A DNA stretch of 64,000 nt from Gemmatimonadales bacterium (GCA_035299765.1 DATGVZ010000095.1:22066-86065); one strand, 5' to 3'; shown: positions 48,697-55,264, numbered from the stretch's first letter. Program-made: numbers and translations. Notes: a model not told the origin generated them from the letters alone.

Positions 48697-49866
48697 ATGA
48701 CGCTGGCAAGCAGTGTCAAACCTCGCATCCTTGGACTCGCCAGATACCGCGGCGAGTTTCCAGTCTTTAAGGACCGCGTGTATCTCAATACCTGCTCGCT
48801 CGGCGCACTGGGCGAGCGGTCTCGTCGCAAAGTAGCGGAATTCCTCGATCTGTGGCAGAGCCGCGGCGCTTCCGCGTGGTACGACGTCTGGTGGGAAGCC
48901 CTCCGCGATCTGCGTGCGCGCTACGGCCGCATCGTCAACGCCGCGCCCGGCGAGATTGCGCTCGCCCCCAGCATCTCGGTCGCGCTCAGCACCGTCGCGG
49001 AGTCACTCGACTACAACCGTCGGCCCAAGGTCGTCATCACGTCGCTCGACTTCCCGACGGTCGCGTATCAATGGCTGGCGAAGGCCCGGAAGGGCGTGGA
49101 GCTGGTCGTGGTGGAGAGTCCCGACCGGATCAGCGTCCCGGTCGACGCCATCGCACGCGCCATCGATGATCGCACGGCGCTGGTCGTGACGTCGCACGTG
49201 TACTTCACGAGTGGTGCGATTCAAGACATCAAGAGCGTTGCCGCGGCCGCGCACGCACGCGGCGCGCTCTGCCTGATCGATGCGTATCAGTCTGTTGGTC
49301 AGATTCCGGTGGACGTGCAGGACGCAGGTGTCGACGCGCTCGTCGCCGGAGGCCTCAAGTGGCTGCTCGGCGGACCAGGCATCGTATTCCTCTACATGCG
49401 CGAAGCAGTGGCCCGTCGCCTCGAGCCGGCCATTTCCGGATGGTTCGGTCAGCGCGAGCAGTTCGCCTTCGACCCGCGCGATTTGACGTTTCACGACGAC
49501 GCGCGACGCTTCGAGCTTGGCACACCGTCGCTCGCGGCGGTCTACGCGCAGCTGGGCGGCCTCGAGTACATCGAGGAGATTGGCATCCCCGCCATTCGCG
49601 ACGTGACCGCGGCGCTGACAGAAGATCTCATCGACCGAGTGCGCGCGGCTGGATTCAAGCCGAAGATTGCCGCGGATGTCCGCCGGCGGTCGGCGATCGT
49701 GATGATTCCGATGCCGGATCCGGCGGCTTCCGTGCGACACCTGGCGGCGGGAGGCGTAATCGCCGACTCACGGCCGGGGCACGTCCGATTCTCGCCTTTC
49801 TTCTACAACGTGCAGGATGACCATGTCAGAGCAACCGAGCGCCTCGCCGCGCAGCCCGCTCACTGA
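48697..49866 (+). CDS. class-V aminotransferase-fold PLP enzyme (kynureninase / cysteine-desulfurase-like)
   Basis: Class V fold sequence with the PLP-Lys context GGLKWLLGGPG. Confidence 0.85.
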   Translation: MTLASSVKPRILGLARYRGEFPVFKDRVYLNTCSLGALGERSRRKVAEFLDLWQSRGASAWYDVWWEALRDLRARYGRIVNAAPGEIALAPSISVALSTVAESLDYNRRPKVVITSLDFPTVAYQWLAKARKGVELVVVESPDRISVPVDAIARAIDDRTALVVTSHVYFTSGAIQDIKSVAAAAHARGALCLIDAYQSVGQIPVDVQDAGVDALVAGGLKWLLGGPGIVFLYMREAVARRLEPAISGWFGQREQFAFDPRDLTFHDDARRFELGTPSLAAVYAQLGGLEYIEEIGIPAIRDVTAALTEDLIDRVRAAGFKPKIAADVRRRSAIVMIPMPDPAASVRHLAAGGVIADSRPGHVRFSPFFYNVQDDHVRATERLAAQPAH

Positions 49867-50593
49867 AGACGAACAGCTCCTCATACCGTCGCAGATCGTT
49901 CCGATCGAGCGGCGGGCCTCCTTCACGAGCACCGATCCGTGGCGAGTGCTGCGCATCATGGGAGAATTCGTCGAGGGCTTCGATACGTTGTCCGACGTGC
50001 GCAATGCGGTGACGGTGTTCGGCTCGGCGCGCACTCTGGAAAACGATCATTACTACGCGGCCGCGCGAGAGACGTCGCGAATGCTCGCGCAGGAAGGGTT
50101 CGCGATCATCACGGGCGGTGGGCCGGGCATCATGGAGGCCGCCAATCGCGGCGCCAAGGAAGGCGGCGGGCTCTCGATCGGTTGCAACATCGAGCTGCCC
50201 TTCGAGCAGGGGACAAACCAGTGGGTGGAGCGCTCGATCAACTTTCGCTACTTCTTCGTTCGCAAGACGATGTTCGTGAAGTACTCGACAGCGTTTATCA
50301 CTTTTCCCGGTGGCTACGGCACGATGGACGAGTTGTTCGAGGCGCTGACCCTCGTGCAGACGGGCAAGGTGAAGCAATTCCCAGTCGTGTTGTTCGGGAA
50401 AAAATACTGGGGCGGTCTCGCGGACTGGCTCAAGGAGCGTGTCGCCGGCGAAGGAAAGATCTCTCCCGAGGATTTGAATCTCTTCCTCCTGACGGATGAT
50501 CCGAAGGAAGCGCTTGGCTGGATCGTGGAAGCGCGCGAGCGCCGCACCCGTGCATACCGCGCCATGGCGCCGATGGGGCAAGCCACGCGATGA
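49817..50593 (+). CDS. LOG family (TIGR00730) Rossmann-fold nucleotide phosphoribohydrolase
   Basis: [17 protein letters not shown] and [12 protein letters not shown]. The start (49817 or 49823) overlaps the upstream gene. Confidence 0.85.
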
Positions 50594-53276: not shown

Positions 53277-54275
53277 TTGAAGATCGCGGTGATTTTCGAC
53301 GCGTTGCATCCCGAATGGGAGGATGCGGACTTCAAGCGCGAGATCGAGCAGAAGGCGGAGGAAGCGGAATACGACGTCGCGCGCGCGCTGATCGCCGGCG
53401 GGCACGACGTGCTCATGATCGGGATCGGCGACGACGTCGGCCCGATGCTCGCGAAGATGGCGACTTTTGAACCTAAGCTCGTGTTCAACGGCTGCGAGGG
53501 CTTCCGCAAGAACGCACGTCATGAGTATGCGATCGCTGCGCTGCTGGATATGTATGGCTACCGCTATACCGGATCGTCGCCGACCGCATTGCTCGTCGCG
53601 CGCAACAAGTCGCTGACCAAGAAGATTCTCGCCTATCACGGCATCCGCGTGCCGGCGTTCGCCGAGTTTCACGATGGCCACGAGCTGGTGCGCCCGTCCG
53701 AGCTGCGCTTTCCACTCATCGTCAAGCCATTGCTCGAGGACGCGTCGATCGGCATCGCCCAGGCCTCTGTCGTAGAGGATGACGCGAGCCTGAAGCAGCG
53801 AGTCGAGTTCATTCACTCGAAGTTCCACCAGGCGGCGATCGTCGAGGAGCTGGTTGAGGGACGCGAGGTGTACGTCGGTCTGATCGGCAACGCTGACGTC
53901 GAGGTCCTGCCGCTGACGGAAATGACCTTCGGCGAGCCCGAGACGACCGAGCACCGCATCGCGACCTACAAAGCGAAATGGGACGAGGACTACCGCAAAC
54001 GTAAGAAGATCAGGAACGTGTTCGCTAAAGGCGTCTCGGACGAGCTGACCAAGCGTATCGGCGAGATCTGCAGCACCGCCTTCCACGCGTTGTGGCTTCA
54101 GGACTACGGCCGTGTTGACGTGCGTTTGACGCACGACGACGAGGTCTATGTCCTCGAGGTGAATCCCAACCCCTTCATTGCCGCCGAGCACGAGATGGCG
54201 GAAGCTGCGGCAAAGGCGGGGCTCAAGTACAACGCGTTCATCCAGCGCATCGTGGACGAGGCGTTGGCCCGGTGA
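53277..54275 (+). CDS. ATP-grasp enzyme (D-Ala-D-Ala-ligase-like family)
   Basis: MKIAVIF.., DKSLTKK-like NKSLTKKIL, PLIVKPLLEDASIGI, and C-terminal EVNPNP. TTG start. Confidence 0.85.
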   Translation: MKIAVIFDALHPEWEDADFKREIEQKAEEAEYDVARALIAGGHDVLMIGIGDDVGPMLAKMATFEPKLVFNGCEGFRKNARHEYAIAALLDMYGYRYTGSSPTALLVARNKSLTKKILAYHGIRVPAFAEFHDGHELVRPSELRFPLIVKPLLEDASIGIAQASVVEDDASLKQRVEFIHSKFHQAAIVEELVEGREVYVGLIGNADVEVLPLTEMTFGEPETTEHRIATYKAKWDEDYRKRKKIRNVFAKGVSDELTKRIGEICSTAFHALWLQDYGRVDVRLTHDDEVYVLEVNPNPFIAAEHEMAEAAAKAGLKYNAFIQRIVDEALAR

Positions 54276-55264
54276 GTAAGCGCGAAGTCCCGACCCCCGA
54301 GCTGCGCTGCCCGAGGTGCCACACCGAGCTGGAGCGCTTCTGGAGCCACTGCCCGAGCTGCAGTCACCGGCTCGAGTGGCCCGATACGCAACGCGAGACT
54401 GGCGCCGAGTGTGCGTACTGCGGGTGGATCGTGTCGGACGCGTTCTCATTCTGTCCCTGGTGCGGCCGCAACATCCAGGACGAGGACTCGAGCGAAGAGC
54501 CGCTCAAGGCGCCGAAGGGATTCAAGTATCACGCCCGGTGCGATTGGGGCTGCGGCGGCGGCGTCATGTACCCGATGCCCTTCTGCCCCTGGTGCGGCCG
54601 GACGCAAACCTGGCGCTACGATCACTTCCAGAACGCCTGCCCACATTGCGACCGGGGCGTGGACGACTGGATGGCGACCTGCCCGTGGTGCGGCGAGGAC
54701 GCCACCGGCCGCGATCTGATCCCCCGTGCCCTGCGTCGAGCACGCCGCTTGCTCATCGTGGCGCGCCTACGCGACTGGCACTATCGCGTCGTGCTGCGCC
54801 CGGGCGTGTCCGGCGTCGCGCCGCGCGCGCCGAAGGTCATCGAGCTCGACCGCCGTTACGTCACCGGCAAGCGCCGCCGCGATGAGATCTCCTGGAACAT
54901 GCTGACGGGGTTGCTGCTCCACGAGCTGGGGCACTCGTTCCTCTATCACCACTGGTCGTGGACCCGCACTGGCCGGTTTCGCCGCGCTTTTGGCGAGGTG
55001 CGCAAAGCCTATCGCGTCGTCGACGAGCATTGGGTGGATTTCGAGCGGCGCCGCATCGCGACGACGCTGACCGACTACGTCAGCGCGTATGCGGCGACCC
55101 ACCCGCAGGAAGATTTCGCGGAGACGTTCCGCTTCTACGTCGCACGCCGCGGCCGGCTCCGCGAGCTATTCGCGGAGTTCGGCCGGAAGCGCAAAGGCGT
55201 GCCGTTGTACGAGAAGTTCCTCGTCCTGCACGACTTCGTCCGCAGTCTGCGTGGATGGCGCTAG
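54272..55264 (+). CDS. four-zinc-ribbon protein fused to a putative HExxH zinc metallopeptidase domain
   Basis: Four CxxC..CPxC units (CPRC..CPSC, CAYC..CPWC, CDWGC..CPWC, CPHC..CPWC), then LLLHELGHSF and EDFAETFRFY. GTGA overlap with the ATP-grasp gene. Confidence 0.8.
   Translation: MSKREVPTPELRCPRCHTELERFWSHCPSCSHRLEWPDTQRETGAECAYCGWIVSDAFSFCPWCGRNIQDEDSSEEPLKAPKGFKYHARCDWGCGGGVMYPMPFCPWCGRTQTWRYDHFQNACPHCDRGVDDWMATCPWCGEDATGRDLIPRALRRARRLLIVARLRDWHYRVVLRPGVSGVAPRAPKVIELDRRYVTGKRRRDEISWNMLTGLLLHELGHSFLYHHWSWTRTGRFRRAFGEVRKAYRVVDEHWVDFERRRIATTLTDYVSAYAATHPQEDFAETFRFYVARRGRLRELFAEFGRKRKGVPLYEKFLVLHDFVRSLRGWR

Follow-up and report, generated by a model that had tools for sequence, protein, structure and literature searches.

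Deoxyhypusine synthase (DHS) of eukaryotes and archaea and the plant homospermidine synthase derived from it are NAD-dependent enzymes that form an enzyme-imine on a conserved lysine, and they are homologous to the SpeY/CdmS family, which employs the same chemistry. Members of this family are found in Anabaena, Thermus thermophilus and diverse phyla (PMC10981699; PMC13625781). Anabaena cannot make homospermidine without SpeY (Burnat 2018, as cited in PMC13625781), and CdmS/SpeY couples two agmatines to form G44G, or caldomycin (PMC10981699). This product, N1,N9-bis(guanidino)homospermidine, also called "diagmatine", is a precursor of homospermidine. Phylogenetically diverse SpeYs all couple agmatines to G44G, which is made by every SpeY assayed but not by human or plant DHS (PMC13625781). 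Unlike DHS, the assayed members of the family use agmatine and not spermidine. The experimental demonstrations for SpeY/CdmS date from 2018, 2024 and 2026. In published clusters, speY is accompanied by an arginine decarboxylase and by either a ureohydrolase (DUH) or an iminohydrolase (DIH).

The locus described here lies within a 64-kb stretch of DNA from a Gemmatimonadales bacterium, the whole of which is referred to as the window. A DHS-like gene is the third of six plus-strand genes at 48697-55264 (Table 1). These genes had been proposed in a sequence-only reading of the window, and ORF calls returned exactly the same coordinates, while profile searches agreed with the domain label of each gene. 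Unlike the published speY clusters, the neighbours are LOG, a pyridoxal phosphate (PLP) enzyme, an MFS transporter, an ATP-grasp protein and a zincin, and no arginine decarboxylase, agmatinase, G44G ureohydrolase or G44G iminohydrolase was found within the 64-kb window. With speY lying apart from the decarboxylase and hydrolase genes, those steps would be encoded elsewhere in the genome, if they are encoded at all.

Table 1. Features of the speY block and its boundaries, in window coordinates
Feature	Coordinates	Strand	Description
orf88	48408-48674	-	Conserved 88-aa gene; first of the divergent orf88-QueG-h93 unit
Divergent gap	48675-48696		22 nt before PLP start; invariant TGTATATTC
PLP enzyme	48697-49866	+	389 aa; Aminotran_5
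LOG	49817-50593	+	258 aa; LOG / "Lysine_decarbox"
SpeY (DHS-like)	50590-51735	+	381 aa; DS domain
MFS transporter	51732-53267	+	511 aa; MFS_1
ATP-grasp	53277-54275	+	332 aa; Dala_Dala_lig_C; TTG start
ZnMx	54272-55264	+	330 aa; zinc ribbons and Peptidase_Mx; GTG start
Convergent 145-aa gene	55261-55698	-	Stop overlaps ZnMx stop; marks 3' end of block

The DHS-like protein shares with SpeY/CdmS the fold, the catalytic lysine and hydrophobic replacements at both aspartate sites. It passes the NF001980 "homospermidine biosynthesis protein" equivalog (547.4 bits, cut-off 450), with residues 12-360 covering profile positions 1-349 of 350, as diverse SpeY relatives likewise do, but it falls below the DHS equivalogs NF002006 (228 against 434), NF002630 (206 against 364) and TIGR00321 (170 against 304). 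By HMMER alignment to human DHS numbering, K304, W302, E298 and D201 correspond to human K329, W327, E323 and D238, with the catalytic K304 (K299 in CdmS) retained in the SWGK motif as AVSWGK. Human DHS holds spermidine through two aspartates, D243 and D316; here M206 and L291 take their places, as F204 and L286 do in CdmS (PMC10981699, section 9). The pocket is thus non-acidic at both positions, as is typical of the agmatine type, and with Asn255 in place of human His288 none of the three residues taken to mark DHS proper is present. This Asn is invariant across the SpeY family members compared. From family membership and pocket residues we infer that the gene encodes SpeY, an agmatine-coupling enzyme. 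Counting against this call are Asn255 itself, at the position of human His288, and the origin of the assayed SpeYs in other phyla. The earlier view that the function of bacterial DHS homologues is unsettled is outdated, as SpeY has been assayed (PMC10981699; PMC13625781) and NCBIfam names the family to which the window protein belongs by score. The catalytic Lys, Trp and Glu are kept, and the spermidine-binding aspartates are lost.

The remaining proteins are assigned with varying precision. LOG passes TIGR00730 (150 bits, cut-off 96; type II), matches the structures 5ZI9, 5WQ3 and 1WEK at 265, 257 and 220 bits, and in alignment to 5ZI9 carries the motifs GGGPGIMEA and PGGYGTMDE, which fit GGGxGxM and PGGxGTxxE. 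It is predicted to be a type-II LOG of the nucleoside 5'-monophosphate phosphoribohydrolase family, sharing both motifs with the cytokinin riboside 5'-monophosphate phosphoribohydrolases of known structure and indistinct from them save for its position 5' of SpeY. The PLP enzyme (Aminotran_5, 131 bits) has P. fluorescens kynureninase as its best solved relative (1QZ9, 115 bits), yet remains below all NCBIfam cut-offs, including those of SufS (109 against 475) and kynureninase (100 against 246). It was accordingly rejected as a true kynureninase or SufS cysteine desulfurase, and would represent an orphan, kynureninase-like subfamily of the class-V fold; a true SufS (474 bits) is encoded elsewhere in the window, at 33508-34815. 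The transporter (MFS_1, 178 bits) matches the bacterial Spns structure 6E8J at 125 bits and human SPNS2 at ~66 bits, and is probably a Spinster-family member. The ATP-grasp protein (Dala_Dala_lig_C, 98 bits) has a Ddl as its best solved structure (76 bits). It scores below the Ddl models (NF002378, the best, 126.8 against 243; TIGR01205, 118.6 against 245.65) and was rejected as a true D-Ala-D-Ala ligase, being Ddl-like in fold only; its TTG start lines up with the M/V starts of orthologues. ZnMx consists of four zinc ribbons followed by a C-terminal HExxH zincin domain (Peptidase_Mx, PF15887, 47.6 bits, cut-off 27, with DZR). Among 43 sequences, the four CxxC...CPWC pairs and H217-E218-x-x-H221 are invariant and HPQEDFAE is conserved. 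Its AlphaFold model has a pLDDT of 71, with weak fold matches to zincins only.

The junctions were examined by direct reading of the bases. ATGA overlaps join LOG to speY (50590-50593) and speY to the MFS gene (51732-51735), a GTGA overlap joins the ATP-grasp gene to ZnMx (54272-54275), and 9 nt (GGTAGGGTC, 53268-53276) separate the MFS and ATP-grasp genes. The LOG ATG at 49817 falls 50 nt inside the end of the PLP gene at 49866. Each of these junctions had been described previously and stands. On public contigs bearing an identical SpeY protein, independent gene calls reproduce this arrangement, their sole difference being a LOG start at the second ATG (49823) and thus an overlap of 44 rather than 50 nt. 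Spacing is tightly kept across Gemmatimonadales loci: the PLP and LOG genes overlap by 50 or 47 nt in all 74 loci scored, and the distance is at most 20 nt from LOG to SpeY in 77 of 78 and from SpeY to MFS in 77 of 77. No terminator-like excess was found within the six-gene block, and no Rfam family matched between 47400 and 56000. A single strand, overlapping or tiny junctions and their persistence across species are sequence features of an operon. The six genes are very likely co-transcribed as a tight co-directional block, and the junctions suggest that a single mRNA probably carries them, with the ATGA and GTGA overlaps coupling their translation. Co-transcription is nonetheless no proof of a common pathway.

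A 261-nt intergenic leader before the PLP gene was considered and rejected, as orf88 is encoded there. Conservation of orf88, profiled with the adjoining gap across 72 species, has a three-base periodicity (variability of 0.31 / 0.07 / 0.13 over the three codon phases), and tblastn matches occur in 74 of 80 Gemmatimonadales loci at 70-97% identity and also in L150, L159, L165 and L173. It matches no Pfam family and is called by some gene-calling pipelines. The divergent gap contains a -10-like TATATT 9 nt ahead of the PLP ATG by direct reading, and may possibly be the promoter of a leaderless or near-leaderless transcript; a sigma-70 consensus scan found no promoter. At the opposite boundary, the convergent 145-aa gene matches no Pfam family, and only 14 of the 60 assessable Gemmatimonadales species carry it.

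Of 60 assessable Gemmatimonadales species, 57 have all six genes. The unrelated flanking genes QueG and GlpD are found in 59 and 47 of the 60, respectively, and because these flanks are equally conserved the persistence of the block reflects order-wide synteny. Within Gemmatimonadales, therefore, co-conservation cannot discriminate a pathway from synteny. The block is also not indivisible. SpeY stays where the ATP-grasp gene is lost (L073, L074, L085, L086) and where the PLP gene is missing (L068, L173); L150 and 59 of the 60 Gemmatimonadales species have the PLP gene. The MFS gene is absent from L150 (QueG|PLP-LOG-SpeY|GlpD), L173 (QueG|LOG-SpeY-ATPg-ZnMx|GlpD) and every SpeY locus outside the order. 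In a set of 87 diverse SpeY loci, no partner gene of the five adjoins SpeY except in close relatives; in other lineages SpeY most often lies beside an AR-fold decarboxylase (in 27 loci) or a gene resembling agmatine deiminase (in 11), which agrees with the published clusters. No co-occurrence of the six genes beyond shared ancestry was found.

The ATP-grasp and ZnMx genes also occur without SpeY nearby, in four of four divergent and unrelated contexts (L174-L177), where they overlap by 1-14 nt. Because the pair occurs alone in these contexts, it is an autonomous two-gene module. ZnMx homologues number only 382 among 5.8 billion proteins, all named ones being from Gemmatimonadales, and the pairing of an ATP-grasp protein with a four-zinc-ribbon zincin appears, to date, to be restricted to Gemmatimonadales-type genomes. 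Ligases of the ATP-grasp fold are known to be paired with hydrolases as "writers" and "erasers", as in glutathionylspermidine synthetase/amidase, VanA/VanX and TTL/carboxypeptidase. Like these, the window ATP-grasp protein is an amide-bond ligase encoded with a hydrolase that could reverse the reaction, an analogy that underlies the pathway proposed in the sequence-only reading. The resemblance in sequence goes no further than the ATP-grasp fold. In place of a CHAP amidase or VanX-type enzyme, the hydrolase gene encodes an HExxH zincin carrying four zinc ribbons, and no polyamine gene lies alongside such pairs in the four genomes. Most likely, the two proteins form and cleave an amide bond on their own substrate.

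That earlier pathway would integrate all six genes: SpeY would make homospermidine or G44G, the ATP-grasp enzyme would ligate an amino acid or other carboxylate to it in the manner of glutathionylspermidine synthetase, ZnMx would be the matching amidase, the MFS protein would export or import the product, and the PLP enzyme and LOG would supply or recycle a building block. The overlapping, co-directional operon of the 57 species is in keeping with this, as are the amide-bond chemistry of ATP-grasp enzymes, the intact HExxH site of ZnMx and the L173 locus, in which ATP-grasp and ZnMx directly follow SpeY in the absence of the MFS gene. A real functional link would likewise produce both the L173 adjacency and the tight operon, and to that extent they tell against a patchwork origin. 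We nevertheless regard the integrated pathway as quite unlikely, given that SpeY persists where individual partners are missing, that the ATP-grasp/ZnMx pair sits far from any SpeY in all four more divergent genomes, that no partner gene adjoins SpeY in ~70 loci of other lineages, that housekeeping flanks are conserved as well as the block, and that the literature searched ties none of the partner families to SpeY. What survives of the proposal is the polyamine-related centre of the block; since the six genes are not co-conserved beyond the order, the shared pathway is refuted there. A further suggestion was that the DHS-like enzyme, in the manner of DHS acting on eIF5A/aIF5A, transfers an aminobutyl or similar group to a protein such as EF-P. 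Bacterial EF-P is the homologue of eIF5A, and the window protein is a DHS homologue with its catalytic lysine kept, but failure at all three DHS cut-offs and replacement of both spermidine-binding aspartates leave a pocket of the CdmS (agmatine) type and make this reading highly improbable. To our knowledge, no protein substrate is known for the SpeY family, the assayed members of which all make the G44G that human and plant DHS do not. Additionally, no EF-P gene lies in the 64-kb window, and in the related genome L175 the EF-P loop tip is Asn rather than Lys, which, coming from a different genome, is only indicative.

The neighbourhood comparison across bacteria, which the sequence-only reading had recommended, left LOG as the only partner still adjoining SpeY beyond Gemmatimonadales, in 9 of 64 assessable diverse loci, with ATP-grasp and ZnMx travelling separately. 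In these nine (L087, L088, L093, L150, L159, L161, L165, L168 and L173), LOG is immediately 5' of SpeY on the same strand, and the SpeYs, each at least 64% identical to that of the window, group in a single part of the SpeY tree. The literature searched yielded no report of this position of LOG. At least three contexts are represented, namely QueG-type, DUF6941/M20D-type (L087, L088) and epimerase/LipA-type (L093, with an 11-nt overlap), and in L087, L088 and L093 LOG and SpeY alone of the six genes are present. An adjacency that has outlasted rearrangement of all its surroundings could mark a true functional pair in the phylum, with LOG serving agmatine or homospermidine metabolism or its regulation beyond mere co-expression. 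This we consider unlikely: LOG is a canonical type-II protein, with intact nucleotide-binding motifs and ~265 bits to characterised phosphoribohydrolases, no chemistry ties N-ribosidic hydrolysis to the SpeY pathway, and 16 other assessable loci with SpeYs of comparable identity (64-71%) have no LOG. A single ancestral adjacency, simply inherited, would explain the pattern.

The reading favoured here, at a probability of about 0.65, is that of a composite, lineage-specific operon built around speY, in which a SpeY step is joined to a patchwork of genes with no shared pathway proven. With bound NAD and the catalytic K304, SpeY would oxidise an agmatine, keep the 4-guanidinobutyl moiety on the enzyme as an imine, pass it to a second agmatine and reduce the product to give G44G. 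Conversion of G44G to homospermidine would fall to a ureohydrolase or iminohydrolase whose gene lies elsewhere in the genome. LOG and SpeY would be the old pair, kept in the wider lineage; the PLP gene would have joined upstream, and the Spinster-type MFS gene and the pre-existing ATP-grasp/ZnMx module would have been inserted between SpeY and GlpD. The absence of the obligatory partners of SpeY from the 64-kb window weighs against this composite reading.

The main value of these findings is correct annotation, the role of the enzyme having been worked out between 2018 and 2026. They also illustrate that operon conservation inside one order alone cannot carry a pathway claim. A more far-reaching extension of the SpeY pathway in Gemmatimonadota is improbable. 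LOG would then be a real partner of SpeY outside cytokinin chemistry, and in Gemmatimonadales the PLP enzyme, Spinster MFS and ATP-grasp/ZnMx proteins would convert G44G or homospermidine to an undescribed conjugated or exported product, the ATP-grasp/ZnMx pair being a new ligase/hydrolase system recruited to polyamines in the order. Gemmatimonadota is a SpeY-bearing phylum that goes unmentioned in the main text of a recent survey (PMC13625781), and two conserved, unexplained gene pairs are brought out, LOG-SpeY and ATP-grasp with the four-zinc-ribbon zincin. This soil lineage very probably makes homospermidine via the agmatine/SpeY route.

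The third gene product of the block, SpeY, which resembles deoxyhypusine synthase (DHS), belongs to a family of known activity, and the view of the sequence-only reading that bacterial DHS homologues have no settled role is outdated. The protein scores 547 bits against the NCBIfam model NF001980 ("homospermidine biosynthesis protein"; cut-off 450) and falls below the cut-off of every deoxyhypusine synthase equivalog in NCBIfam, and activities of SpeY and of its Thermus member, CdmS, have been published (PMC13625781, PMC10981699). Homospermidine synthesis in Anabaena requires SpeY (Burnat 2018, as cited in PMC13625781). 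CdmS joins two agmatines into diamidino-homospermidine, also known as caldomycin or G44G, from which a ureohydrolase yields homospermidine in Thermus (PMC10981699); G44G is made by all assayed SpeYs, drawn from diverse phyla, and not by human or plant DHS (PMC13625781).

When the window SpeY is aligned to human DHS, human K329, W327, E323 and D238 are retained as K304, W302, E298 and D201, and D243 and D316 are replaced by Met206 and Leu291. The CdmS paper singles out the same two positions as altered (F204 and L286; PMC10981699), and CdmS and the window protein are thus hydrophobic at both aspartate positions. Human His288 corresponds to Asn255, an Asn that is invariant across this SpeY family. 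The exchange of D243 and D316, a loss of spermidine-binding residues that the sequence-only reading would have counted against its proposal, is the outcome expected of a SpeY, and Met206 and Leu291, together with the kept catalytic residues, mark the predicted pocket as the agmatine-coupling type. The window SpeY would accordingly be placed as an enzyme converting agmatine to G44G, with the decarboxylase and the G44G hydrolase presumably encoded elsewhere in the genome; no arginine decarboxylase, agmatinase, agmatine iminohydrolase, nitrilase-type amidohydrolase or EF-P was found within the 64-kb window.

The six open reading frames lie on the plus strand exactly where the sequence-only reading placed them, its domain labels are backed by Pfam and NCBIfam, and its junctions are borne out by direct reading of the bases. 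Independent gene calls on public contigs with an identical SpeY protein (e.g. GCA_009772435.1) give the same six genes, with LOG starting at its second ATG. The window stems from a metagenome-assembled Gemmatimonadales genome. A fusion of MFS and ATP-grasp, signalled by an apparent gap of -999 nt in nine loci, was rejected. The two genes share a reading frame in the window, with one stop codon and 9 nt between them, so that alignments crossed the stop and mimicked a fusion in nine species; because direct translation finds the stop codon in every locus, the signal is an alignment artefact. The six genes would form one transcript with translational coupling.

Coordinates of features in the window and in loci of relatives (L numbers)
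Feature	Position	Strand	Basis or remark
PLP / LOG junction	LOG ATG 49817 within PLP gene (PLP end 49866)	+	bases read
LOG start in public calls	49823	+	second ATG
LOG / SpeY junction	ATGA 50590-50593	+	bases read
SpeY / MFS junction	ATGA 51732-51735	+	bases read
MFS / ATP-grasp junction	9-nt gap 53268-53276, then TTG start	+	bases read
MFS stop codon to ATP-grasp start	53265-53279	+	shared frame
ATP-grasp / ZnMx junction	GTGA 54272-54275	+	bases read
88-aa gene	48408-48674	-	codon-phase variability 0.31 / 0.07 / 0.13; found in 74/80 species
93-aa gene (h93)	47210-47491	-	
suf cluster	29618-34815	+	SufB, SufC, SufD, then SufS
SufS	33508-34815	+	class-V cysteine desulfurase
434-aa repeat protein	57403-58707	+	HEAT/PBS-lyase type
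ATP-grasp/ZnMx, L174	6964-8999		stand-alone pair
ATP-grasp/ZnMx, L175	6977-9008		stand-alone pair
ATP-grasp/ZnMx, L176	6974-9014		stand-alone pair
ATP-grasp/ZnMx, L177	6980-9017		stand-alone pair
EF-P, L175	1396-1953	-	loop tip PGNLRA
LOG-SpeY, L087	6954-9161		context unlike the window's
LOG-SpeY, L088	3167-5253		context unlike the window's
LOG-SpeY, L093	6130-8161		context unlike the window's
PhoH next to SpeY, L092	2061-5234		intein in PhoH
Hc1-like gene, L090	9169-9375		directly after speY
Hc1-like gene, L091	8152-8379		directly after speY

Among the partners, LOG is of the canonical type II: it matches 5ZI9 at 265 bits and carries both signature motifs. MFS belongs to the Spinster family, and the PLP enzyme is kynureninase-like and scores under every family cut-off. 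The window also holds a complete suf iron-sulfur assembly cluster, whose SufS is the real class-V cysteine desulfurase, which helps to show that the operon enzyme is a different paralogue; PADLOC defence-system models return only generic cysteine-desulfurase similarity for it.

Within the order, 80 species-level genomes were compared (SpeY identity 81-99%), and all six genes occur in the same order in 57 of 60 assessable loci. Spacing stays close, at -50 or -47 nt for PLP-LOG (74/74 loci) and at most 20 nt for LOG-SpeY (77/78) and SpeY-MFS (77/77); ATP-grasp is absent from four loci (L073, L074, L085, L086) and PLP from one (L068). Such conservation was ruled out as proof of function, since QueG (59/60), h93 (56/60), M20 and GlpD (47/60), unrelated flanking genes, are kept to the same degree, which points to order-wide synteny.

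Other lineages were sampled with a profile built from distant SpeY relatives recovered by exhaustive search, giving 87 loci (seven Pfam-annotated contigs and 80 metagenomic loci). None of the five partners adjoins SpeY there unless that SpeY shares 64% identity or more with the window's, so co-conservation fails outside Gemmatimonadales. In the remaining loci SpeY most often adjoins an alanine-racemase-fold Orn/Arg decarboxylase (27 loci) or an agmatine-deiminase-like protein (11 loci), in agreement with published speY clusters. Of 64 diverse loci that could be assessed, nine have LOG directly 5' of SpeY, as do two further, truncated loci. Their SpeYs belong to three adjacent subclades, the genomic surroundings are of at least three kinds, and LOG-SpeY would be an inherited pair. 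In two such loci, L087 and L088, SpeY is closely followed by an M20D-type amidohydrolase (TIGR01891, CpsA/DoeB2-like), in L087 with one reverse-strand gene between; this enzyme might serve the polyamine pathway as a deacylase or amidohydrolase. Between QueG (-) and GlpD (-), locus L150 carries PLP-LOG-SpeY and L173 carries LOG-SpeY-ATP-grasp-ZnMx; in the full set, MFS and a further four genes also precede GlpD. The interval between SpeY and GlpD was filled stepwise, and the block is a mosaic.

The last two genes behave as a unit of their own. ZnMx proteins form a small family (382 in 5.8 billion proteins), every named member of which is from Gemmatimonadales, and in four more divergent members ATP-grasp and ZnMx overlap by 1-14 nt, three of these pairs lying on contigs of 1.4-4.6 Mb. 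Around these four pairs, in unrelated neighbourhoods, there is no SpeY, LOG, PLP or MFS within 8 kb, which argues for a self-contained module that in one subclade came to lie behind SpeY. Neither a conserved third gene nor a precursor-like ORF adjoins the pair. The ATP-grasp protein has a Ddl-like fold, at half of the Ddl cut-off; ZnMx has four zinc ribbons and an HELGH motif, all of them invariant, and its AlphaFold model (mean pLDDT 71) gives weak fold matches, to zincins only. The pair is most likely a separate ligase/hydrolase unit, its chemistry independent of SpeY.

Long SpeY relatives were searched for Rosetta-stone fusions, and none joins SpeY to LOG, PLP, ATP-grasp or ZnMx. The extra length of P0121 and P0137 is due to intein insertions; one intein-bearing homologue has HNH/NUMOD3 homing-endonuclease signatures, and in L092 the adjoining PhoH gene also carries an intein. 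P0265 is a natural fusion of an S-adenosylmethionine-decarboxylase-like (SpeD) domain to SpeY, consistent with published SpeD-derived arginine decarboxylases that work with SpeY, and a DS-MFS read-through in P0127, a probable miscall, was not taken as a fusion. In the plasmid collection, SpeY-like matches occur only on Nostoc and Trichormus plasmids (34% identity), and no ZnMx relative was found. A small Hc1 histone-like gene (PF07432) directly follows speY in a Bacteroidota genome and in Candidatus Kryptobacter (L090, L091), placing a polyamine gene beside a nucleoid-protein gene.

A 261-nt intergenic leader upstream of the block was rejected, as the stretch is coding. The 88-aa gene, which has no Pfam match, shares 4 nt with the beginning of QueG; these two and the 93-aa gene make up a conserved set of three on the minus strand, transcribed divergently from the operon. 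The true gap before PLP is 22 nt and carries an invariant TGTATATTC, 9 nt 5' of the PLP ATG, possibly the -10 element of a near-leaderless transcript. Leader and operon gave no Rfam match to a riboswitch or known RNA even at E <=1, a sigma-70 promoter scan gave no match, and terminator-like sites are no commoner than in shuffled sequence. Farther downstream, the 434-aa protein of many near-identical AAWALGEIQD repeats ends in a His-Val-rich tail (HVHVHPHVHVHV) and might bind metal.

The modified residue of E. coli EF-P is Lys34. At that position Asn was read, in the EF-P of the related genome L175 rather than of the window's own; in the L175 protein neither Lys nor Arg occupies the usual modification site. 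SpeY family membership, pocket residues, junctions and mosaic distribution are directly established. An integrated polyamine-conjugate pathway across the block is improbable, at little more than one chance in ten. In the literature searched, no report turned up on polyamines in Gemmatimonadota, on LOG together with DHS or homospermidine, or on a pairing of ATP-grasp with a zinc-ribbon peptidase. The SpeY core belongs to a known family, and its genomic context is unreported. Worth noting are two conserved pairs, LOG-SpeY and ATP-grasp/ZnMx, and a SpeY-bearing phylum, Gemmatimonadota, of which the main text of the recent SpeY survey (PMC13625781) makes no mention.
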